Source: Vicinamibacterales bacterium (lineage in GTDB: Bacteria > Acidobacteriota > Vicinamibacteria > Vicinamibacterales > UBA2999). Taken from it: a DNA stretch of 64,000 bases. The stretch covers positions 23,288 through 87,287 of the forward strand of contig JBFXBH010000002.1 of assembly GCA_050183355.1 (NCBI GenBank). The letters are read 5' to 3'. The translations under genes were made by a program, and so were the position numbers. Shown here piece after piece: positions 30,229 to 48,476 of this stretch (position 1 is the stretch's first letter; each line of letters opens with the position of its first letter). A model generated the notes under the pieces. That model was given only the letters and a program-made list of their open reading frames with translations, had not been told where the DNA came from and ran no database searches.

Positions 30229-30257
30229 CGTAACGAGTTCGTCCGCTGGCGCACTCA
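30229..30257 (+). promoter_or_regulatory. ECF-type promoter-like motif cGTAAC-N17-CACTCA (copy 4)
   Basis: CGTAAC (30229-30234), 17 nt, CACTCA (30252-30257). It lies 46 nt upstream of the ATG at 30303 and has the same architecture as the copies at 39181, 46495(-) and 46518. Confidence 0.5.
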
Positions 30258-30302: not shown

Positions 30303-30725
30303 ATGGCATCGACACCAACGTTCGGACGAGCAGTGGCTGGTGGGGCCGTGGGCACGGTGGCGATGACCGCCATGATGTACGGCGTCGCGCCGATGATGGG
30401 TCTGAACATGGACATCGCGGCCATGCTCGGCAGCATGCTGGGCGGCAGTTGGCTCGCCGGCATGGCGATGCACGGCCTGCTCGGGGTTGTCGTGTTTCCG
30501 GCCGCGTTCACATTCGGGGTGCGCGGTCTTCTGCCTGGCTCCGAGCTGATGCGCGGGCTGGCCTGGGGCGTCGTCCTCTGGCTGATGGCGCAGGTCGTCG
30601 TGATGCCGATGATGGGCGGAGGGCTGTTCAGCAGCGCGATGGGCGGGATGATGGCCGTCATGGGCTCCCTTGCGGGGCACGTGCTGTACGGAGGCCTGTT
30701 CGGCATGGTTGCCGGCCGACGGTAA
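30303..30725 (+). CDS. Met/Gly-rich small integral membrane protein (hypothetical)
   Basis: AAGGAGA RBS before ATG 30303. 140 aa, about 4 predicted TM helices, 21 Met (15%) including PMMG, GMAMHG, VMPMMGGG and GGMMAVMG clusters. Confidence 0.65.
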   Translation: MASTPTFGRAVAGGAVGTVAMTAMMYGVAPMMGLNMDIAAMLGSMLGGSWLAGMAMHGLLGVVVFPAAFTFGVRGLLPGSELMRGLAWGVVLWLMAQVVVMPMMGGGLFSSAMGGMMAVMGSLAGHVLYGGLFGMVAGRR

Positions 30726-37952: not shown

Positions 37953-38501
37953 ATGAACTACACCGTGCATTCCATCGAGTCCGCTCCGGCGGCTTCCAAA
38001 GATACATTGGCTGCCGTCGCAAGGGCCTACGGGTTTCTGCCGAATCTGATGGGCGTGATGGCCGAGGCGCCTGCCGCGCTCAAGGCCTACCCGACGCTGA
38101 TCGGGCTGTTCGACCAGACGTCGTTCACGCCGACGGAGCGGCAGGTCGTACTCCTGGCTACCAGCGTCGAGAACGGGTGCGACTACTGCGTGGCCGCGCA
38201 TACGGTGATCGCGGGCATGCAGGGCGTGGCCGGCGAGGTCGTGCAGGCGATTCGCGCGGGTCAGCCCCTTGCCGATACGAGGCTCGAGGCCCTGCGCCGC
38301 TTCACGATCGCGGTGGTCGGTTCACGGGGACGCGTCTCCGACGCGGACACCACGAGCTTCCTCGGCGCTGGATACACACTGGGGCAGGTGCTGGAGGTCG
38401 TGCTGGGCGTCGCCATCAAGACGCTGTCGAACTACGTGAACCACATTGCCGAGACGCCCATCGATGGCGCGTTTGCAGCGGCGGCGTCGCCGGCCGCGTA
38501 G
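37953..38501 (+). CDS. carboxymuconolactone decarboxylase (AhpD-like) family protein
   Basis: AAGGAGAA RBS. 182 aa with a CxxC in the AhpD-like context (ENGCDYCVAAH). Confidence 0.85.
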   Translation: MNYTVHSIESAPAASKDTLAAVARAYGFLPNLMGVMAEAPAALKAYPTLIGLFDQTSFTPTERQVVLLATSVENGCDYCVAAHTVIAGMQGVAGEVVQAIRAGQPLADTRLEALRRFTIAVVGSRGRVSDADTTSFLGAGYTLGQVLEVVLGVAIKTLSNYVNHIAETPIDGAFAAAASPAA

Positions 38502-38645
38502 GGCTCCGCCGAAGACCGCCGGACGGCGGGCCAGTCCGACCCAGGCAATCGGTGAGGTGCTGGCTGTGGCCGCCCGCACACCAGCAACCTCGTCTGTCGT
38601 CGCTCCCGAGCACCACGACAGCCGCGTCAAAGAGAGGAGCAGCAC

Positions 38646-39119
38646 ATGACCTCGTCAGCACGCCCGCCGGTTCCACCGTTCACCGGTGCGACCGCCGCGC
38701 GGAAGGTGCGCATGGCCGAGGACTCCTGGAACAGTCGCGACCCCGACCGCGTGTCGCTCGCCTACACGCCGGACTCTGCGTGGCGAAACCGGGCCGAGTT
38801 CCTCCTCGGCCGCTCGGCGATCGTAGCGTTCCTGCAACGAAAGTGGGCGCGCGAGCTGGAGTACCGGCTCGTCAAGGAACTCTGGGCGTTCGCCACGGAC
38901 CGCATCGCCGTTCGCTTCGCCTACGAGTGGCACGACGACGGCGGGAATTGGTTCCGGTCGTACGGCAACGAGAACTGGGAGTTCGACGCCGGCGGGCTGA
39001 TGCGACGTCGTCTCGCCAGCATCAACGACCTCCCGATTCGCGAGGTCGACCGGCTGTTCCGATGGCCCGCCGGCCCGCGACCGGAGGGCCATCCATCGCT
39101 CACCGATCTGGGTCTCTGA
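38646..39119 (+). CDS. DUF1348 / nuclear transport factor 2-like family protein
   Basis: 157 aa. Motif run [33 protein letters not shown]...[27 protein letters not shown], typical of DUF1348. Confidence 0.8.
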
Positions 39120-39180
39120 CCGGCGCGCGCCTTGACCCGAATTCCTCAGGAATGCCGCTACAGGCATTGGACGACGGGCC

Positions 39181-39209
39181 TGTAACGATCGGGCCACCTC
39201 CGGCACTCA
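39181..39209 (+). promoter_or_regulatory. ECF-type promoter-like motif TGTAAC-N17-CACTCA (copy 3)
   Basis: TGTAAC (39181-39186), 17 nt, CACTCA (39204-39209). Upstream of a 32-codon ORF (39276) and the histidine kinase (39418). Confidence 0.55.
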
Positions 39210-39275
39210 CCCGGTGACGGAACGTTAGCTGTGTCCGCTCCTCGGGCCAGGTGCAGCGAACCCGGAGGAATGCTG

Positions 39276-39374
39276 ATGCAGCCGCTCGCCGACGTCGATC
39301 AGATCGACCACGCACCTGAGGAGTCGAAGGAGCCAGGCGAAGGCCGGGCTGAAGAGTGGGCTCCGGTCAGGTAA
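39276..39374 (+). CDS. candidate small acidic protein (32 aa), unverified
   Basis: ATG preceded by GGAGG (39264-39268, 7-nt spacing). MQPLADVDQIDHAPEESKEPGEGRAEEWAPVR*. It sits between the promoter-like motif and the kinase gene. It is below the track length cut-off and I have no homology evidence. Confidence 0.25.
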   Translation: MQPLADVDQIDHAPEESKEPGEGRAEEWAPVR

Positions 39375-39417
39375 TAGCACCGTCGAGCCGCCGGCGCGGC
39401 AGAGAGGGGAAGAGTGG

Positions 39418-40872
39418 ATGCAGCCGTGGGCATGGGGACTCCTGAACGTGCTCGTCTGGTCGGTCGGCCTGAAGGCTGTGTACGACCTGCGGCGTGAGCA
39501 CGCGGCTGGTTCGCGCGCCTGGACGCTTCTGACGTGGGCGCTCTGGTGCTGCCTGGCGATGGAGGCAGCCATGCTGCTGTCTCCGTCGATTCCGGGTCTG
39601 GCCCTTGTCTCGGTCGTGACAGGAATGCTCTCCGCGGGTCTCGCGGCCGGCGGCATGATGACCCTGGTGTCCGACGTGAGGACGGGAACGGATGCGGTCG
39701 GCGGGCCTCGTGTCGGGATTCTGGGCGGGCTACTCGCCGCGGCGCTGGCCGGATCCGTTGCGGTATCGGTTGTGGCGTCAGACACGGCCGTGCGCATATC
39801 CGGCGCCCTGCACTATCTGGAGGGCGCCCTCTGGCTGGCATCGTCGGCCATGCTGGTCACCGCGCTCCTGGCCAGCCACGAGACCACGGAGAGGCAACTG
39901 CTCAGGCCGCGGCAGTTCGCGGCGGCCTTTGCGATCGCGTTTCTCGGACCCGCCACGTCCATGCTGGCCTGGCTGGTCGGCACCACGGTGCCTCGGGAGG
40001 TGACGGCGCTGCTGAGCACGTTGTTCGTGCTGACGCTCGTATCGGCACTGTACGCCATGGTCATACGCGTGCGGAGCCGCGGCCTGGCGGCCGCGACGGC
40101 CCAGGTTCACGCCTACGAGCACCAGATCCTGATCGTCGAGAAACTCGCAGCGGTCAGCACCCTGGCGGCCGGTGCGGCGCATGACCTGAACAATGCACTC
40201 GCGGCCATCCACGGTTTCACGGAGTTGCTGCTCGACACGCCGGACCTGGCGCCGTCGGTCCGGCAGGATCTCTTGCAGGTTCGTACGGCGGCCCGGTCCG
40301 CCTCGGCTGTCGCGAAGGATCTGCTGGGCGTTGCCCGAGTGCACGCGGGCGCCGGTGGACCGAGGGGTGTGAAGGACGCAGTGCTGCAGCCGCTGGCGCT
40401 GCTGGAGCGGGAGTTCCAGCGTCGCCGAGTGCAGGTAGTCGCGGACGTGCCGGACGGGCTGCCGGACGTGTCAATGGAGCCGCAGGCACTGAGTGGGGTG
40501 TGCATGAACCTGTACCTCAACGCGCGGGACGCCATGGCCAGTCGCCAGAAGGGCCGGCTCACCCTCACGGTGCGCTCCCACGGCGACGGCGTTACGGTGA
40601 GCGTCGCCGATACGGGAACGGGCATCCCCGCCTCCTTTCGGAGCCGCATCTTTCAGCCGCTGGCGAGTACCAAGGGCGAGCACGGCACCGGCCTCGGATT
40701 GTCGGTATCGCGGCGGCTGGTTGTGGAGGCCGGCGGAGACATCACATTCGTCACCGATGAGGGCGTCGGGACGGAGTTCCGAATCCATCTGCCTGCCGCC
40801 AGCCGCGAGACCTGGCAGCGGAGCGATGGCGAGCCCTTGGACGTAGAGCCGCCGCCCGGACGGGCCGCGTAG
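39418..40872 (+). CDS. membrane-bound sensor histidine kinase (orphan, no adjacent response regulator)
   Basis: About 6 N-terminal TM helices. HisKA H-box (AAGAAHDLNNALAAIHGFTELL) and HATPase N/G boxes (NLYLNARDA, DTGTGIP, GTGLGLS). Confidence 0.9.
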   Translation: MQPWAWGLLNVLVWSVGLKAVYDLRREHAAGSRAWTLLTWALWCCLAMEAAMLLSPSIPGLALVSVVTGMLSAGLAAGGMMTLVSDVRTGTDAVGGPRVGILGGLLAAALAGSVAVSVVASDTAVRISGALHYLEGALWLASSAMLVTALLASHETTERQLLRPRQFAAAFAIAFLGPATSMLAWLVGTTVPREVTALLSTLFVLTLVSALYAMVIRVRSRGLAAATAQVHAYEHQILIVEKLAAVSTLAAGAAHDLNNALAAIHGFTELLLDTPDLAPSVRQDLLQVRTAARSASAVAKDLLGVARVHAGAGGPRGVKDAVLQPLALLEREFQRRRVQVVADVPDGLPDVSMEPQALSGVCMNLYLNARDAMASRQKGRLTLTVRSHGDGVTVSVADTGTGIPASFRSRIFQPLASTKGEHGTGLGLSVSRRLVVEAGGDITFVTDEGVGTEFRIHLPAASRETWQRSDGEPLDVEPPPGRAA

Positions 40873-40887
40873 GGATCGTCGCCACCG

Positions 40888-40918
40888 GCGCGTCTGGCCG
40901 GACGCGCGATCGGCCAGA
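40888..40918. terminator. overlapping GC hairpins after the kinase gene (possible terminator)
   Basis: GCGCGTC (40888-40894) pairs with GACGCGC (40901-40907). Alternatively TCTGGCCG (40893-40900) pairs with CGGCCAGA (40911-40918). It starts 16 nt after the stop. Confidence 0.35.
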
Positions 40919-41169
40919 GAGGCGACGTGCAGCCGTGACGTCTCGTCGACCGGGAACGGCCCTGGCGCCGATCCGAGAAGGTCAGGGCGCGTCCGGCAGG
41001 TCCACATCAGCGGTGGCAGTTCTGTCTGGGCCGCCGGGTTCCCGCCGGCGATCAACGATGCGAGCCGTGCCCCTGACCACGACCTCTCCCGTGCGGCCTC
41101 ATCGCGGGGCCGCGGAAGGTGCCGCGTCACTGTGATGCCTGCGCAGTCCGCGTGCCCAGCTGCAAGCGT

Positions 41170-42624
41170 TCACTTGAGCAGAACCGTGTCGGGAAACTGC
41201 GCGTACCAGGCGAACCAGAATGCTCGCTGCGCGGGAACCCGAGGCAGGGCAGGACCGCCCGACTCGGGCACGAGGCCGGACTCGGTGATGATCCACCGGC
41301 GGCCCGACTCGTCACGGAGCACGCGGTCGATGCGCTGCATCGGAGGTGCGATCGCGCCCTCGTACACGCGATTGGCGCCAGCGGAGGTCGTGACGACGAG
41401 GTACCGCCGGCTGCCACGCGAGAAGCTCAACAGCGGATTCCGCTTGAGGAGCCGCACGTCGATGGCGAGCGGCTCGATGGCCCCGGCGGCCGAGGGCAGT
41501 CGCAGCACGAGTACTTCGTCTTTCAGGTTCAGTCGGCGGTCCTCGGCCGGCACCGGAAACAGCAGATCGGGACTGGCGAAGTAGTCCCGGTACGCCGCGC
41601 CTTCGGCGTAGTCGCGGGAGAAGCCCGTGTTAATCGAGAGCACCGTCGTGTCGGGATGCATCTGCCGCCACTCTCGCCACGTCGTCGTGACCACCGCGCG
41701 CATCGGCAGTCGTATGCCGGACCGTGCGAGTGGACCGATCACCGGCGCGCCTTCGATGGCGGACCATAGGGTTCCGGTCTCCTCATCGAACATCAGTTTG
41801 TTCGAGCGGTAGAGCAGGCCGCTGGTGCCGAAATGAAAGTCCGCCGCGCCGACGTGGGTCTCGTACGGAATGACGGTGCCGCAGAGCGTGCAGTACACCA
41901 CCGCAAGGTCGATCTGGCCCAACCGGTCCAGGGCCAGCTCATGCCACGCGAGAATCCGCTTCGGATAGGCACGGGCCACCCCGCCGACTTCGATGCCGAA
42001 GACGATGTCGGAGTCTCGAAGGTAGTTCGCCTCCGGCGCAGTGACCACGGCCGGGTTGCGCAGCGGGGGGATGCCGTTGACCATCACGCCGCCCCAGTCC
42101 ACTTCGTCCAGGCGGATGCGCAGCGCGACGCCGTCGGGAAAGAATCTGGCCATTCGCGGGTCGATGCCGGCGTACAGTTGCCGCTTCAGCGCCACGTGGA
42201 CTGACAGCGATTCGGACGGCAGTGACCACGTCCACTTGCGCCAGCGGACCAGGTCGTCGCCGAGCTTCTGTTTCGTCTGGCGTTCGAGAAACTGAAGGAG
42301 CCGGCGCCGCTCGGGTGAGCCGGGATCGCCGATCTCGGGTAACCCGGCCCCGGCGGACGGCAGCCGAGACCCGGAGGGCATCCCATCGCCGTCGCCGACC
42401 GGTTGAGATCGACGTGGGGGCCGGAACATCCGAGCCATGTCGAGGAGGAGCGCCGCATACCCTGGGCGCCACTGCCGCGCGATCTCCCGCAGGGCCGCCT
42501 CGGCCACGGGCCGTTCCCGGGAGGCGGCTCGGAAGAAGGTGTCGACTGGAACCTCTGCCGTCGCGACCAATGGGACCGTGACGAGAGCCAGAGCGACGAC
42601 GACGCGCACGCCGAATCGGGCCAT
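41170..42624 (-). CDS. DUF3179 domain-containing protein (secreted)
   Basis: Signal peptide. Core motifs VFGIEVGGVARAYP, VVYCTLCGT, SGLLYRSNKLMFDEETGTLW typical of DUF3179. Confidence 0.85.
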   Translation of the reverse strand: MARFGVRVVVALALVTVPLVATAEVPVDTFFRAASRERPVAEAALREIARQWRPGYAALLLDMARMFRPPRRSQPVGDGDGMPSGSRLPSAGAGLPEIGDPGSPERRRLLQFLERQTKQKLGDDLVRWRKWTWSLPSESLSVHVALKRQLYAGIDPRMARFFPDGVALRIRLDEVDWGGVMVNGIPPLRNPAVVTAPEANYLRDSDIVFGIEVGGVARAYPKRILAWHELALDRLGQIDLAVVYCTLCGTVIPYETHVGAADFHFGTSGLLYRSNKLMFDEETGTLWSAIEGAPVIGPLARSGIRLPMRAVVTTTWREWRQMHPDTTVLSINTGFSRDYAEGAAYRDYFASPDLLFPVPAEDRRLNLKDEVLVLRLPSAAGAIEPLAIDVRLLKRNPLLSFSRGSRRYLVVTTSAGANRVYEGAIAPPMQRIDRVLRDESGRRWIITESGLVPESGGPALPRVPAQRAFWFAWYAQFPDTVLLK

Positions 42625-42681: not shown

Positions 42682-43074
42682 TCAGGCCGAGAGTGCGGCG
42701 TCCGCCGCCTCGACATGCGCCGCGACTGCCCGCCGCGCGGCTTCGCCGGTGATCCGGAAGTGCGAGGCCGTCCAGCGGGCTCGGCCGTCGCCGACGAGCA
42801 GCAACTGCGGCGACTCGTGCCGGACACCCAGCCGTTCCGCGACGGCACTCGATGCTGCACGGCCTGTCTGAACGCTGATGACGTAGAGCGGGACGGGGAG
42901 GCTGCCGCGAGCCTCGGACAACTCGTCCCAGGCCTGCGCGCTGATCCCGCACGTCTCGCTGTGCTTGAACAGCAGGATGGGCCCGGTCCGTGACGCAGCC
43001 AGGGCGGCGTCGACGTCTTCCGGCGTCGTCAGTTCAGGGGCGTGGCGCATGGGGTCGGTCTGGTGTACGGGCAT
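42682..43074 (-). CDS. ytxJ: YtxJ-like monothiol thioredoxin-fold protein (DUF2847, bacillithiol-system type)
   Basis: GGAG RBS before the internal Met 43074. ILLFKHSETCGIS (TCxxS monothiol motif) and ESPQLLLV as in YtxJ. The track start 43128 adds 18 aa. Confidence 0.7.
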   Translation of the reverse strand: MPVHQTDPMRHAPELTTPEDVDAALAASRTGPILLFKHSETCGISAQAWDELSEARGSLPVPLYVISVQTGRAASSAVAERLGVRHESPQLLLVGDGRARWTASHFRITGEAARRAVAAHVEAADAALSA

Positions 43075-43162
43075 GGGTGCTCCAGAGGGATCGCTGCCAG
43101 GTGATCGTGTCAACCGATCGTGACGCATCCGCGCCGGGCACGGCGGCGCGAAGCGCGGGAAC

Positions 43163-44028: not shown

Positions 44029-44499
44029 TCAGGCCCTCGACGTGCCGCCGAGCATCCGCGAAAGGACATGGTCCACGGAAACTGCGCCGCCGCCGCGTAC
44101 GAGCAAGGTGACCAGGATGGAGGCCCACACGAGATGATCCGTCCACGCCGCCGGGTAGACAAACGTCTGAATCACGAGCAGCATGCCCAGGAACGGCAGC
44201 GTCGCCAGGCGGGTGCCGAGCCCGACGATGAGCAGCGTTGAGAAGACGAGTTCGTTGAAGGTGGCCATCTGCGCACTCAGCTCTGGCGGCATCAACGGCA
44301 CTTTGTACTCGTCCCGGAAGAGCATCAGGGTCAGTTCCCAGCTCTGGTACTTCAGCAGTCCCGCCTTGAGAAACACGGAGCCGATGGCGACCCGCATCAC
44401 CAGCTGAACGGCGGAGAAGGGGATGGCCTCGAGGCGGGCGAAGACGTTCGAGACAAGCCGTGCGGCAGGCGACGGCATGGCAATGGCGGCAGTGGTCAT
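44029..44499 (-). CDS. DoxX-family membrane protein (last gene of the bufferin-type operon)
   Basis: 156 aa, 4 TM helices, RVAIGSVFLKAGLLK DoxX pattern. ATGA overlap with the DUF2063 gene. Confidence 0.85.
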   Translation of the reverse strand: MTTAAIAMPSPAARLVSNVFARLEAIPFSAVQLVMRVAIGSVFLKAGLLKYQSWELTLMLFRDEYKVPLMPPELSAQMATFNELVFSTLLIVGLGTRLATLPFLGMLLVIQTFVYPAAWTDHLVWASILVTLLVRGGGAVSVDHVLSRMLGGTSRA

Positions 44500-45272
44500 C
44501 GGTGCGCTCCTGTGAGTGGCGATACGCCGGTCACCAGACCGTCGTGGAACAGGGCCGCCAGAGCAGGCCCGGGCTGAAAGTCGGGATGTACGACTGCCGC
44601 GGCGGCCGCCGCCTCCAGTGAAAGACCACGCTGGACGCCCTGACGGAACGCGAACGCACCGGGCGCCAGTCGCGTGAACCAGACGCGGCCGCGATCACCG
44701 CGCGCTTCGATCCAGACGGGTTCGTCTTCAAGCGGCGCGCCGCCCTCCTCCCGTCCGGAGAGGAACCGGGTCATGAGCGTGTCGATTGGCGACCGCGCGG
44801 TCCCGTACCACGTCGCGGGCTGCAGCGTGAGGCTGCAGCCAGGCAGCGCGTCGCCCAGCGCCTGCACCGCCTCCACCGGAAGAGCCGGTGCGGAGACGCC
44901 CACGGCCAGGCGTCCGAGATGCCAGTCGAACTCGGCGAAGACCCTGGCGGGGATGCCCGGCCGGGGTTCGGCCATCTCGAGCCATGCGGGAACGCCAGAT
45001 CCGTACTCCGCGATGCAGGGTGCCGCCGGCGGGTGAGCCCGGACGAACGCGCGTGCCGCGCGCTCGAGCGCGGGGGACCCCAGGAGCCAGCCCGTGGCGG
45101 GGAATCGGTTCATGACGGCCTCGACGAGGCTCGTCTCGAAGTGCCGGAGGTAGATGTCGAGCCTGCTGGCCGGATCCCGCTCGTCCGGCCGTTCGAGGAG
45201 CGTCAGGAGCGGCTCTCCGTTGCCGCTGACGACGGCGTCCCGGACGCGGCGCTGGAGGTCAGCGAGCCGCAC
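44496..45272 (-). CDS. bufC: DUF2063 domain-containing protein (BufC/MbnC-like RiPP partner protein)
   Basis: 258 aa. N-terminal LQRRVRDAV...RLDIYLRHFETSLVEAV typical of DUF2063. The GTG start overlaps the DUF692 gene by 14 nt. Confidence 0.8.
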   Translation of the reverse strand: MRLADLQRRVRDAVVSGNGEPLLTLLERPDERDPASRLDIYLRHFETSLVEAVMNRFPATGWLLGSPALERAARAFVRAHPPAAPCIAEYGSGVPAWLEMAEPRPGIPARVFAEFDWHLGRLAVGVSAPALPVEAVQALGDALPGCSLTLQPATWYGTARSPIDTLMTRFLSGREEGGAPLEDEPVWIEARGDRGRVWFTRLAPGAFAFRQGVQRGLSLEAAAAAAVVHPDFQPGPALAALFHDGLVTGVSPLTGAHR

Positions 45273-46131
45273 GGCCGCACCCTTCCGTCAACGCGCGCTG
45301 CGCCCTGTCCGCCTCACGCACCAGCGAGGCCAGCGGTGGCAGGTTCGTGTCACGCTCGATGAGCGTCGGCACGGGACCGAAGAGACGGAGCGCCGTCTCC
45401 AGCAGTCGCCATGGCCCGTCATCGACGTCCCGATCGTGCGTGTCGATGATGACGATGCCGCCGTCTGGTTCGGGCTCGCGCGTGAAGCCGCCGAGGTGCA
45501 GCTCGGCGACGGCGTGCGCCGGCAGGGCCGCCAGGTACGCCTCGGCGCGGTAGCCCATGTTGTGCGCGCTCAGGTAGACGTTGCTGACGTCGCAGAGGAG
45601 CCGGCAACCCGTGCGCGCGACCAGCGCGCTCAGAAACTCCGGCTCCGTCATGTCCGAGCCTGCGAATCCAAGGTAGTTCGCCGGGTTTTCCAGCAGAAAC
45701 GGCCGCCCGAGTGCGTCCTGCACCTCCTGCACGTGCGGCGCGATGACGGCCAGGGCTTCAGCCGTGTACGGCAGCGGCAGCAGGTCGTTGAGGTAGTCCG
45801 CCCCGTGCGTGGACCACGCGAGGTGCCCTGAGACGAACACCGGGTCCACCTGCTCAGCAAGCTCTTGCAGCCGGACCAGATGCCGGCGATCAAGACCTGA
45901 GGCGCTGCCGACCGACACGCCGACGGTGTGCAGCGCGATCGGATAGTCGCGGCGCAGGTCCAGCAACAGTTCGGTGGCGTGCGGGTTGGCGAGGACGTTC
46001 TCCGGGTGGATTTCGAACCACCCGACGGACGGGCGGGTGGCCACCGCCTCCTGCACATGCGGCAGGCGCAGCCCGATACCGGACCCGAGGGGAGGCGGGA
46101 CGGTGTCGGTCATGGCGGTAGCCACCGGCAT
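45259..46131 (-). CDS. bufB: DUF692 / MNIO (multinuclear non-haem iron oxidative) enzyme, BufB/MbnB-like
   Basis: AGGA RBS before Met 46131. GIGLRLPH...WFEIHPEN...HTVGVSVGS...SGHLAW...FLLENP...LHLGG TIM-barrel motifs of DUF692. Confidence 0.85.
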   Translation of the reverse strand: MPVATAMTDTVPPPLGSGIGLRLPHVQEAVATRPSVGWFEIHPENVLANPHATELLLDLRRDYPIALHTVGVSVGSASGLDRRHLVRLQELAEQVDPVFVSGHLAWSTHGADYLNDLLPLPYTAEALAVIAPHVQEVQDALGRPFLLENPANYLGFAGSDMTEPEFLSALVARTGCRLLCDVSNVYLSAHNMGYRAEAYLAALPAHAVAELHLGGFTREPEPDGGIVIIDTHDRDVDDGPWRLLETALRLFGPVPTLIERDTNLPPLASLVREADRAQRALTEGCGRAAR

Positions 46132-46139
46132 CGGCGTTC

Positions 46140-46403
46140 CTACTTGGCGGCCTTGGACGCGCCGACGAGGCGGTCGCAGTAGCCCTCGGGCACGAACACC
46201 CACGCCTTCTTGTCCCCGTCCTTCTTCGACATGCCGGCGCAGGAGTTGTTGCCCTGGGACGCACAGTCGTTCTTGCCGGCCTTGGCGATGCCGTAGCACT
46301 TCTCGGCTTTGAACGAGGGCATGGCGGCCGGCTGGGCGGAGAGGATGGCGGGGGCGGCGAGCGAGACAGCAAACGCGGAGGCGAGCAGAGCACGTGAGGT
46401 CAT
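46140..46403 (-). CDS. bufA: DUF2282 signal-peptide-bearing precursor (BufA-type bufferin precursor)
   Basis: 87 aa. Sec signal peptide, then EKCYGIAKAGKNDCASQGNNSCAG...WVFVPEGYCDRL with the four conserved Cys of DUF2282. Confidence 0.85.
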   Translation of the reverse strand: MTSRALLASAFAVSLAAPAILSAQPAAMPSFKAEKCYGIAKAGKNDCASQGNNSCAGMSKKDGDKKAWVFVPEGYCDRLVGASKAAK

Positions 46404-46466: not shown

Positions 46467-46495
46467 TGAGTGCGGAAGGCGCGCCGGATGTTACA
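46467..46495 (-). promoter_or_regulatory. ECF-type promoter-like motif TGTAAC-N17-CACTCA (copy 2, drives bufA operon)
   Basis: Minus strand: TGTAAC (46495-46490), 17 nt, CACTCA (46472-46467). 64 nt upstream of the bufA ATG. Confidence 0.6.
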
Positions 46496-46517: not shown

Positions 46518-46546
46518 TGTAACGTCGCGCGGCCGGACAGCACTCA
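46518..46546 (+). promoter_or_regulatory. ECF-type promoter-like motif TGTAAC-N17-CACTCA (copy 1, autoregulatory)
   Basis: TGTAAC (46518-46523), 17 nt, CACTCA (46541-46546). 50 nt upstream of the sigma-factor GTG. Confidence 0.6.
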
Positions 46547-46595: not shown

Positions 46596-47174
46596 GTGGC
46601 TGTTCGACCGGATCTGGAGAAGCTGAAGAACCGCGATGCGGACGCGTTGCGCGAGGTCGTGGACCAGCACGCGCGACGGCTGTACCGGACCGCGCGGGCG
46701 CTCGGGTGCAGCGCGGCGGTGGCCGAGGACGTGACGCAGGACGTGTTCGTGACGTTTCTGGAAGCGCTGGACCGCTTCGAAGGGCGATCGTCGCTGAGCA
46801 CGTGGCTGATCGGCATCCTGCGGCACAAGGTGTTCGAGCGGCGCCGTGCGGCTCTGCGCGATGATCGGCACGACCCGATTGACGAGGTGTTCGAAGCGCA
46901 GTTCGATCGGGCGGGCCACTGGACGCCCGAGGCGTCACCAGCCGATCGGCAGTTGGAGGCTCTGCAGTCCGCTGAAGCCGTGACGGCCTGCATGGCGGCG
47001 TTGCCGGATCGACTGCGCGAGGTGTTTCACCTGAGGCAGGTGGAAGATCTCTCTGCCGAAGAGGTCGGCCGCATGGTGGGATGCACGCCGGGACATGTGG
47101 GCGTGCTCCTGCATCGGGCCCGGACGCGGCTGCGGACGTGCCTGAAGGAGAAGGGATGGGGGCCAAGGCTATGA
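46596..47174 (+). CDS. ECF-family RNA polymerase sigma-70 factor
   Basis: 192 aa. Region 2 (AEDVTQDVFVTFLEALDRFEGRSSLSTWLIGILRHKV) and region 4 (LPDRLREVFHLRQVEDLSAEEVGRMVGCTPGHVGVLLHRAR). GTG start. Confidence 0.9.
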   Translation: MAVRPDLEKLKNRDADALREVVDQHARRLYRTARALGCSAAVAEDVTQDVFVTFLEALDRFEGRSSLSTWLIGILRHKVFERRRAALRDDRHDPIDEVFEAQFDRAGHWTPEASPADRQLEALQSAEAVTACMAALPDRLREVFHLRQVEDLSAEEVGRMVGCTPGHVGVLLHRARTRLRTCLKEKGWGPRL

Positions 47175-47404
47175 TGACCTGCAAGGACGTGTCGACGCTC
47201 GTCTCGCTGGGCGATGTCGGTTCGTGGTCCGTGTCCAGGCGTCTTGCGATCCGGCTCCACCTCCTCATGTGCCGGCACTGCCGGGCGTTCGCCCGGCAGG
47301 TCGAGATGTTGACGCACGCGGCGCGCGGCACGGGCGCACGGGTGGGGCAGGAGCCTCCGCCGACGTTTGAGACGGCGATCGTGGATCGGTTGAGGAAAGG
47401 TTGA
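47171..47404 (+). CDS. short soluble zinc-finger (ZAS, HxxxCxxC) anti-sigma factor
   Basis: ATGA overlap with the sigma gene. 77 aa with C4 ... H30-x3-C34-x2-C37 (HLLMCRHC). No hydrophobic segment. Confidence 0.8.
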   Translation: MMTCKDVSTLVSLGDVGSWSVSRRLAIRLHLLMCRHCRAFARQVEMLTHAARGTGARVGQEPPPTFETAIVDRLRKG

Positions 47405-47408
47405 CGAC

Positions 47409-48476
47409 ATGAAGATCCTTCGCTTGCGTGTACGGGCGGCAGTGGCTCTGGCGATTGTGTGTGTCGCAGCGGGCGCGGGGGCGGCGCAGACAGCCGCACC
47501 GTTGCCGGATGTGCGGTCGCTCGGTCCGCAGGTGGGACAGACGGTTCCCTCGATCTCCCTGGCGGATCAGAAGGGCGTGGTGCGCACGCTGCCGTCGCTC
47601 ATGGGACCGAAGGGCCTGATGTTGGTGTTCTCGCGGTCCGCGGACTGGTGCCCCTATTGCAAGACCCAGATGGCGGAACTGCAGACCAAAGCGGAGGACC
47701 TCCGCCGCAACGGGTGGGGGCTGGCAGTCGTGACCTACGACGCGGTCCCCGTCCTGGCGGACTTCGCAGCGAGGAGAGGCATTACCTACCCGCTCCTCTC
47801 CGACCCCGGATCGGAGACCATCAAGCGTTTCGGCATCCTGAACACGACGGTCCCTGCCGAGAACAAGGCGATGTTCGGGATCCCGTTCCCGGGTACGTTC
47901 CTGCTGGATGCGAAAGGCGTTGTCACGAACCGGTTCTTCGAGCCCGCGTATCAGGAGCGGGTCACGGTGGGGAGTGTTCTCGCGCGCCTGGGTAATCGCC
48001 TTGACGTTCCCGTGACGAAGGTCTCCTCGCCGCAGATGAACGTCACGGCGTACGCCACCGACGGTGTCGTGGCGCCGGGGACGAACTTCTCGGTCGTCCT
48101 GGACGTGGAGCCCGGTCCGAAGATGCACGTGTACGCGCCGGGCGTGACGGGCTACAAGCCGATCGCGCTGACCATGCAGCCGACTCCGGGCGTTCAGGTG
48201 AAGGCCGCGCAGTATCCGAAGTCCGAGGAGTACTACTTCGCGCCGCTCAAGGAACGCGTGCAGGTCTACCAGCGGCCGTTCCGCGTGGTGCAGGACCTGG
48301 CGGTCGACGCCTCGACGGCCGGTCAGGCCGCGCTCAAGGGCGTGACCACGCTGATACTGAAGGGCACGCTCGCCTACCAGGCGTGTGACGACCGTGTCTG
48401 CTACACGCCGCAGACCGTTCCCTTGACGTGGACGGTCGAACTGCGCGCACTCGACCGGGATCGGCCGAGGCCCTGA
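47409..48476 (+). CDS. secreted peroxiredoxin (AhpC/TSA/BCP-like) fused to a DsbD-alpha-like domain
   Basis: Signal peptide. Redoxin domain with WCPYC. The C-terminal domain ends in YQACDDRVCYTPQ, resembling the DsbD N-terminal domain YQGCADAGFCYPP. Starts 4 nt after the anti-sigma stop. Confidence 0.8.
   Translation: MKILRLRVRAAVALAIVCVAAGAGAAQTAAPLPDVRSLGPQVGQTVPSISLADQKGVVRTLPSLMGPKGLMLVFSRSADWCPYCKTQMAELQTKAEDLRRNGWGLAVVTYDAVPVLADFAARRGITYPLLSDPGSETIKRFGILNTTVPAENKAMFGIPFPGTFLLDAKGVVTNRFFEPAYQERVTVGSVLARLGNRLDVPVTKVSSPQMNVTAYATDGVVAPGTNFSVVLDVEPGPKMHVYAPGVTGYKPIALTMQPTPGVQVKAAQYPKSEEYYFAPLKERVQVYQRPFRVVQDLAVDASTAGQAALKGVTTLILKGTLAYQACDDRVCYTPQTVPLTWTVELRALDRDRPRP

Follow-up and report, generated by a model that had tools for sequence, protein, structure and literature searches.

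A candidate promoter of a bufferin-linked ECF sigma factor upstream of an orphan membrane histidine kinase in Vicinamibacterales

Does the sigma factor encoded beside a bufferin operon also drive the expression of a sensor kinase? This question is raised by a stretch of 64,000 nucleotides from a Vicinamibacterales bacterium (assembly GCA_050183355.1, contig JBFXBH010000002.1), called here the window. In it, a promoter-like element at 39181-39209 lies ahead of a gene for a membrane histidine kinase (39418-40872, plus strand, 484 aa) and resembles sites found between a bufferin operon and the gene of an extracytoplasmic function (ECF) sigma factor. Bufferins are recently recognised and very widespread copper-binding peptides, and to our knowledge the only bufferin regulator studied so far is the SigF-NrsF pair of Caulobacter. 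Comparison of the window with related genomes leads us to consider it likely that the ECF sigma factor encoded at 46596 uses 39181-39209 as a working promoter, from which a transcript would run through the stump of a brxC gene into the orphan kinase. Relatives are cited below by working labels such as G005 or L187.

The element and the sigma factor that it may serve

The element, P_hk, reads TGTAAC-gatcgggccacctccgg-CACTCA on the plus strand, with the -35 hexamer at 39181-39186, a 17-nt spacer and the -10 hexamer at 39204-39209. Two other sites, P_bufA (46467-46495, minus strand) and P_sig (46518-46546, plus strand), form a back-to-back pair between bufA (DUF2282; 46140-46403, minus strand) and the ECF sigma gene, the latter site suggesting autoregulation. 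Sites orthologous to P_bufA occur in G005, G007 and L187, and a back-to-back pair is likewise present in L187. Hexamers and 17-nt spacing are identical at P_hk, P_bufA and P_sig, an exact match that a preliminary description of this DNA had already claimed. The pattern TGTAAC-N15-19-CACTCA matches the window three times, against 0.01 matches expected from shuffled sequences, and the whole assembly (3.32 Mb, 70% G+C) holds three exact copies of the motif, with none for the reversed control. When one mismatch was allowed, a single extra match was found genome-wide, CGTAAC-N17-CACTCA at 30229-30257 (plus strand), 46 nt upstream of a gene (ATG 30303-30305) that encodes a Met-rich membrane protein of the DUF6789 family (Pfam). 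All four sites fall within 17 kb. P_hk had been introduced as the third copy, which is right for exact copies, but the window has four sites in total when the one at 30229 is counted. The organism is uncultured and, since its assembly is a metagenome-assembled genome (MAG) that is 92% complete, further copies could be missing.

P_hk is intergenic, located in the 298-nt gap between the stop codon of a DUF1348 gene (39119) and the kinase ATG (39418), and is oriented toward the kinase. The distance is 66 nt to an ATG at 39276 preceded by a Shine-Dalgarno (SD) sequence and 208 nt to the kinase ATG; for the other three sites, the start codon is 46-63 nt away. A spacer matrix was built from 26 sites in relatives, whose leave-one-out mean is 2.8 bits. 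With it, P_hk scores 3.9 bits, P_bufA 1.05 and P_sig 0.42, and the matrix shows added information directly 3' of the -35 hexamer (TGTAAY-gTy). A scan of 38500-41300 detected no terminator-like or sigma-70-like site from the motif to the kinase. Transcription would be expected to start a few nt 3' of 39209.

The ECF sigma gene (46596-47174, plus strand) encodes 192 aa with the Pfam domains Sigma70_r2 and r4_2. A first search found orthologs of it in 6 of 41 genomes; in the order as a whole, 22 of 401 genomes have one, the window genome being included in both counts. The first 40 relatives include five orthologous sigma loci, all of which have (T/A)GTAA(C/T/G)-N17-CACT(C/T)A at the divergent target. 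The element is TGTAAT-N17-CACTTA in G005, TGTAAT-N17-CACTCA in both G039 and G018, AGTAAT-N17-CACTCA in G007 and TGTAAG-N17-CACTCA in G015. Another 18 sigma-bearing genomes gave 24 matches to TGTAAY-N17-CACTCA versus 0 for the reversed control. Copies that are remote from the sigma gene in relatives lie 5' of bufA-bufB and of genes for a secreted redoxin, a TVP38-like protein and a Met-rich membrane protein; additional targets are a small secreted Cys/His/Met protein followed by DUF6789, and DoxX with DUF6789. Homologs of DUF6789 stand 3' of the motif in G039, G357 and G143, and a redoxin gene of G039 lies behind an exact copy. Two of the 24 stringent matches (L160, L161) and two GGTAAC matches from a looser scan (L074, L076) lie within or antisense to coding sequence, which makes chance their probable origin; the spacer matrix gives the two intragenic stringent matches -2.1 and -23. 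A search of named relatives with the window sigma returned only distant ECF paralogs, of 42% identity or less. The distribution of the motif supports its assignment as the genuine cognate promoter of the bufferin-linked ECF sigma factor.

Promoter, brxC and kinase in related genomes

Do kinase orthologs keep this promoter? Three informative loci, L187, L189 and L190, were found by a search of a large protein collection restricted to the sensor domain of the kinase; L189 and L190 are short contigs, on which sigma genes are not visible. The gene order of L190 (kinase 97% identical) is like that of the window, with the end of the DUF1348 gene, the motif, the small open reading frame (ORF) and the kinase, and the motif has both hexamers unchanged and one change in the spacer. 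In L189 (kinase 92% identical) the element TGTAAC-gatcggggtgcctcaga-CACTTA is followed by a full-length brxC/ytxJ gene encoding 131 aa (matches to PF11009 and TIGR04019), 88 nt and the kinase. The -10 variant CACTTA recurs in G005 and L187, at promoters linked to the sigma. When the window is compared with L189, the hexamers are changed at 1 of 12 positions and the spacer at 5 of 17, and the DNA 5' of the -35 hexamer is largely different, which is the pattern expected of a selected promoter.

The third locus, L187 (GCA_030651195.1, labelled Vicinamibacterales), has the sigma most similar to that of the window among those found (73%), an anti-sigma that is 69% identical and a kinase that is about 60% identical. 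On one side of the gap between sigma and bufA, the genes run sigma, anti-sigma and redoxin; on the other side they run divergently as bufA, bufB, bufC, doxX, brxC and kinase, with gaps of 45 nt before brxC and 31 nt before the kinase. The sigma-bufA gap contains TGTAAT-N17-CACTCA and TGTAAT-N17-CACTTA back to back. These are the only motif copies within the stretches read, and the kinase is reachable from the bufA promoter. The kinase is therefore tied to this promoter type in two arrangements, either at the end of the bufferin string (L187) or in a brxC-kinase unit with its own copy. Conservation of the motif at orthologous kinases, which the preliminary description had named as a check, is thus largely found: L190 and L189 keep it, and the L187 kinase belongs to the bufferin string. 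These three gene orders back regulon membership, and with it the proposal that the ECF sigma motif controls the kinase; they support the kinase as a conserved member of the bufferin sigma regulon. From sequence comparison we also infer that transcription from P_hk depends on the sigma factor and includes the kinase. A kinase control that was a private invention of the window genome was considered as well and is ruled out by L187, L189 and L190.

Between promoter and kinase lies a 32-codon ORF (39276-39374, plus strand; stop codon 39372-39374). The motif had been described as pointing to this ORF and then to the kinase; the layout is correct, but the ORF does not stand as a gene. The alignment of its DNA with L189 is collinear over promoter and SD as far as ...GAGGAGTCGAAGG near 39330. 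Past this junction, the window and L190 resume at the stop codon of the L189 brxC and continue into the brxC-kinase spacer, so that about 290 nt are deleted with respect to L189, the T-C-G-I-S active site included. Codons 1-18 derive from brxC and codons 19-32 from the former brxC stop and intergenic DNA. Residues 1-18 (MQPLADVDQIDHAPEESK) are identical to residues 17-34 of the L189 BrxC (MHPLTGVGQLDDAIEESK) at 11 of 18 positions. The G+C content of third codon positions (GC3) is 0.83 in codons 1-18, as in real genes here (0.81-0.85), and 0.64 in the last 14 codons. By these alignments the ORF is the stump of a deleted brxC and not an independent gene. A micro-protein or upstream ORF had also been considered for it and was rejected on the brxC alignments and the split in GC3. 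The case warns that a small ORF may look well formed and have a strong ribosome-binding site, and yet be no more than what is left of a deleted gene.

The predicted 5' leader (39210-39275, plus strand; alignment with L190 and L189) has the SD GGAGGA at 39264-39269 and a block at 39213-39234, GGTGACGGA..ACGTTAGCTGTGT, which is kept in L189 and L190 although its flanks diverge. This block may mark where transcription starts or serve as another control element, and no Rfam family matches the leader. The block is partly recognisable in G396 (cggaatac). The former brxC-kinase spacer (39375-39417, plus strand), with the ribosome-binding region of the kinase, GAGAGGGGAAGAG, is kept in L189 and L190. 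In the window and L190, the promoter hexamers and the kinase ORF are intact despite deletions on both sides of the kinase. Since the promoter would ancestrally have served the brxC-kinase pair, its link to the kinase would be older than the window genome.

Several observations weigh against control of the kinase by the sigma factor. In the other sigma-bearing genomes, 10 remote motif copies were examined, and none of them stands before a kinase. Kinase orthologs of G016 and G009 occur in genomes without a sigma ortholog and without the full motif, the motif being absent in G016, and G339 has the kinase and no sigma match in a genome that is only 85% complete. In G396, which has both sigma and kinase, the upstream element TGTAAC-N17-GACATC has a non-consensus -10, and kinase control there may be weak or exerted by another sigma. 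Moreover, the promoter could be kept only as a relic of brxC control, and the kinase could be read through from the upstream CMD-DUF1348 genes. The element would then have been selected for brxC, and the kinase, functionally unrelated to the sigma factor, would be transcribed mainly from another start, within the remnant or the spacer, or by this read-through. This fits the origin of the small ORF as a brxC remnant, the kinase orthologs in genomes without the sigma, and the fact that brxC-type thiol-redox genes are typical targets of sigmas controlled by zinc-binding anti-sigma (ZAS) proteins, such as SigR with its RsrA. Nevertheless, brxC and kinase adjoin on the same strand both in L187 and in L189 (31 and 88 nt apart), and the 31-nt gap of L187 leaves no room for a separate intergenic kinase promoter. 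The hexamers and the kinase ORF have also remained intact after the deletions on both sides in the window and L190, and the scan detected neither a sigma-70-like promoter nor a terminator between motif and kinase. We regard a mere relic of brxC control as unlikely.

It is very unlikely, in our judgement, that the main product of the promoter is the leader or the small ORF itself, as a regulatory upstream ORF, a small acidic protein or a small RNA, with the kinase weakly coupled to it. The strong SD, 6 nt 5' of the ATG at 39276, and the leader block kept in L189 and L190 would suit such a product. However, SD, ATG and codons 1-18 are inherited from brxC, the last 14 codons come from formerly non-coding DNA and have the lower GC3, both differences of the ORF from L190 alter the amino acid, and the leader is without an Rfam match. 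That two hexamers came together by chance and have no promoter function is hardly credible. About 0.06 exact matches are expected per genome from single-base composition, and relatives do have the matches in or antisense to coding sequence mentioned above (2 of 24 stringent ones and the two GGTAAC ones of the looser scan). But P_hk is intergenic and properly oriented, and only 7 kb separate it from the sigma gene; L190 and L189 have retained it amid diverging flanks, its spacer resembles those of true sites in the matrix, and reversed controls gave 0 in the window genome and 0 in the 18 relatives. A chance motif was thus rejected on rarity, reversed controls, the matches in relatives and the spacer score.

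A proposed circuit and known systems

If P_hk is the sigma-dependent promoter of the kinase, the following circuit can be proposed. Directly behind the sigma gene, a soluble ZAS-type anti-sigma of 77 aa is encoded (47171-47404, plus strand), with the motif HLLMCRHC and a match to NCBIfam NF052368 (55.9 bits, cut-off 50). It has no match to a Pfam family, DUF1109 included. This anti-sigma would release the sigma factor, the likely trigger being thiol-oxidative or copper stress. Freed sigma would transcribe its own operon of sigma, anti-sigma and redoxin, the bufferin operon, and the DUF6789 gene. The redoxin gene (47409-48476, plus strand), 3' of the sigma and anti-sigma genes in the same order as in L187, encodes a secreted protein with AhpC/Redoxin and DsbD_N domains (Pfam). 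The bufferin operon (44029-46403, minus strand) is composed of bufA (DUF2282), bufB (MbnB/MNIO), bufC (DUF2063) and doxX (Pfam). From P_hk, a sigma-driven transcript would run through the dead brxC stump into the seven-segment kinase, and stress that frees the sigma would raise the amount of kinase. In this way the two signalling systems would act in series, as the preliminary description had proposed. More speculatively, the kinase probably senses a membrane signal through Cys45 and Met48, possibly Cu(I) or redox state, and may pass it to a response regulator encoded elsewhere. The ancestral unit would have been the ECF promoter, brxC (a YtxJ-type monothiol redoxin) and the kinase. Before it became a separate unit, the brxC-kinase pair may have stood at the tail of the bufferin operon. 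In the window lineage, the deletion of about 290 nt would then have removed the catalytic part of brxC and left the original SD and start codon.

How does this compare with known bufferin regulation? Caulobacter vibrioides sigmaF recognises GTAACC-N16-CGAA (PMC3511200) and controls two bufferin operons (buf1 and buf2) and a YedY-type gene, together with the membrane anti-sigma NrsF (PMC3511200; PMC11626156). Both systems have an ECF sigma (ECF16 in Caulobacter) beside a bufABCD/doxX cluster, bufferin genes that are, or would be, switched on under metal or oxidative stress, the -35 core GTAAC, and a small regulon made mostly of envelope proteins. They differ in the anti-sigma, which in the window is a soluble 77-aa protein with an HxxxCxxC motif, whereas NrsF (DUF1109) is a six-helix membrane protein, and in the promoter, with a -10 CACTCA and a 17-nt spacer in the window versus CGAA and N16 for sigmaF. 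The predicted window regulon also adds DUF6789, redoxin, brxC and the histidine kinase. The table of the sigmaF regulon contains no kinase (PMC3511200). A 2025 survey of MNIO gene clusters reports sigma and NrsF genes in Buf1 clusters (PMC12452194); its text does not contain the terms 'histidine kinase', 'two-component' or 'BrxC', and 'histidine kinase' is likewise absent from the text of the Caulobacter bufferin paper (PMC11626156).

Transcriptional coupling of an ECF sigma factor and a two-component system is nevertheless known. In mycobacteria, SigE raises mprAB transcription, closing a loop with this two-component system. The coupling in Mycobacterium tuberculosis is reported to involve a kinase with an adjacent cognate regulator that activates sigE, and envelope stress to alter how much of a second sensor is present (PMC11173970, PMC8561658, PMC2258413). 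The level of a second sensor would respond likewise in the window, but the window kinase is an orphan with an unrelated sensor domain, and no feedback onto the sigma is visible. Because such coupling is already known, the window case would represent a new regulon member in a known design. The preliminary description knew of no such sigma-kinase wiring for bufferin-associated sigmas. This agrees with its absence from the two bufferin papers, and the link of a sensor kinase to bufferins appears to be undescribed; the coupling as such is not new.

The soluble anti-sigma recalls SigR-RsrA of Streptomyces coelicolor, in which a zinc-binding HxxxCxxC protein governs an autoregulated sigma with a thiol-disulfide redox regulon. 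Shared features are the type of anti-sigma, autoregulation and redox members, which here are BrxC/YtxJ and the AhpC/redoxin-DsbD_N protein. The promoter motif is different (GGAAT-N18-GTT for SigR), and the window regulon, which includes a sensor kinase, has a copper-binding peptide and envelope proteins at its centre; the two sigmas are not known to be orthologs. Our results suggest that Acidobacteriota, here Vicinamibacterales-like MAGs, may regulate bufferins differently, with a soluble zinc-finger anti-sigma and a larger regulon. This regulon would include a sensor kinase, whose link to the bufferin system is seen in two independent gene arrangements, and gives the testable hypothesis that bufferin expression is coupled to a second envelope signal.

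The kinase family and its surroundings

The kinase has the Pfam domains HisKA (PF00512, 37.5 bits) and HATPase_c (PF02518, 76.6 bits). By hydropathy, residues 1-220 comprise about seven hydrophobic segments joined by very short loops; this membrane part matches no Pfam family. Among eight kinase orthologs (38-93% identical), W6, W14, G17, E27, W35, C45, L46 and M48 are invariant in the membrane part, and the H-box His255 (AAHD) is invariant in 8 of 8. The multi-pass N-terminus with very short loops is similar to that of intramembrane-sensing kinases. The best NCBIfam matches of the catalytic core (DHp/CA) are ZraS and AtoS, at 136.9 bits, far below the equivalog cut-off of 479. A sensor kinase with about seven segments is found in 4 of 401 genomes of the order, the window genome included, and back-translated patterns searched over all species genomes gave matches to the kinase core only and no kinase orthologs.

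As had been noted before, no response regulator adjoins the window kinase, which has DUF1348 upstream and a convergent DUF3179 gene downstream. The sole adjacent regulator seen for the family is that of G396, a 359-aa protein with REC and HD (GYP-like) domains encoded 35 nt 3' of the kinase ortholog (L186 2973-3689, L191 142-1221). It is a REC-HD protein and not an NtrC-type activator. It has no close ortholog in the window genome, where the best full-length match is 32% identical.

The recurring neighbours of the kinase are bufferin genes, DoxX, YHS, DUF6789, BrxC and TVP38, in four gene arrangements with and without the sigma. In G016, which lacks the sigma (L056 364-3553), the order is DoxX, a YHS-domain protein and the kinase, followed by a convergent DUF6789 gene, and in G339 a TVP38/VTT gene lies directly 5' of the kinase. 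The sensor domain in the membrane, so far uncharacterised and with an invariant Cys and Met, is a candidate metal or redox sensor. Tentatively, and with considerable doubt, the family might consist of intramembrane sensors of about seven helices whose invariant Cys45-x-x-Met48, in the second helix, detects Cu(I) or thiol stress at the membrane, as a second, sigma-induced sensory layer of bufferin copper defence. The recurring neighbours would then mark a conserved envelope copper/redox module whose regulation is undescribed.

A GTAAC core occurs within about 250 nt upstream of the kinase in 4 of 5 independent kinase lineages, with a calculated chance of about 4e-4. The kinase-upstream elements are TGTAAC-N17-GACATC in G396 (L186 1332-1360), GGTAAC-N17-GACATT in G339 (L184 1356-1384) and TGTAAC-N17-GACTGG in G009 (L057 1461-1489), and have GAC at the -10 and the 17-nt spacing in common. 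Other sigma-linked sites of G396 use CACTCA. The GAC-type -10 at these distant kinases may reflect either decay of the site or its use by a related sigma.

Neither sigma nor kinase is present in any of the four genomes of the same genus (G001-G004), and sigma orthologs are limited to about 5% of the order. With such a distribution, the bufferin/sigma/kinase region behaves like accessory DNA that is inherited patchily. The window also harbors an intact brxC/ytxJ paralog (42682-43128, minus strand; PF11009, TIGR04019) without an ECF motif upstream. In four relatives, a small secreted protein with the pattern ..DAMCGxxHMM..C..C.. is encoded directly behind the ECF motif, often followed by DUF6789 (L163 1119-1589, minus strand; L179 1048-1410, minus strand; L181 1122-1640, minus strand; L071 about 2205-2400). 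No copy was noticed in the window. This protein may be another metal-binding member of the regulon.

Between kinase and DUF3179, about 700 nt are missing in the window (40872-41170) compared with L190 (1964-2959), which removes most of a gene for a 248-aa protein with a heavy-metal-binding domain (HMBD). The C-terminal tail of the kinase also differs, with 484 aa in the window versus 500 aa in L190. Together with the brxC deletion, the loss of these 700 nt suggests ongoing gene loss around the kinase. Finally, at the brxC-kinase unit the ECF regulon may overlap in relatives with a Crp-family one, as L189 has a perfect CRP-type box, TGTGAggcgccTCACA, at about 1265-1280, where a divergent DUF3179 gene is separated from the ECF promoter of this unit.

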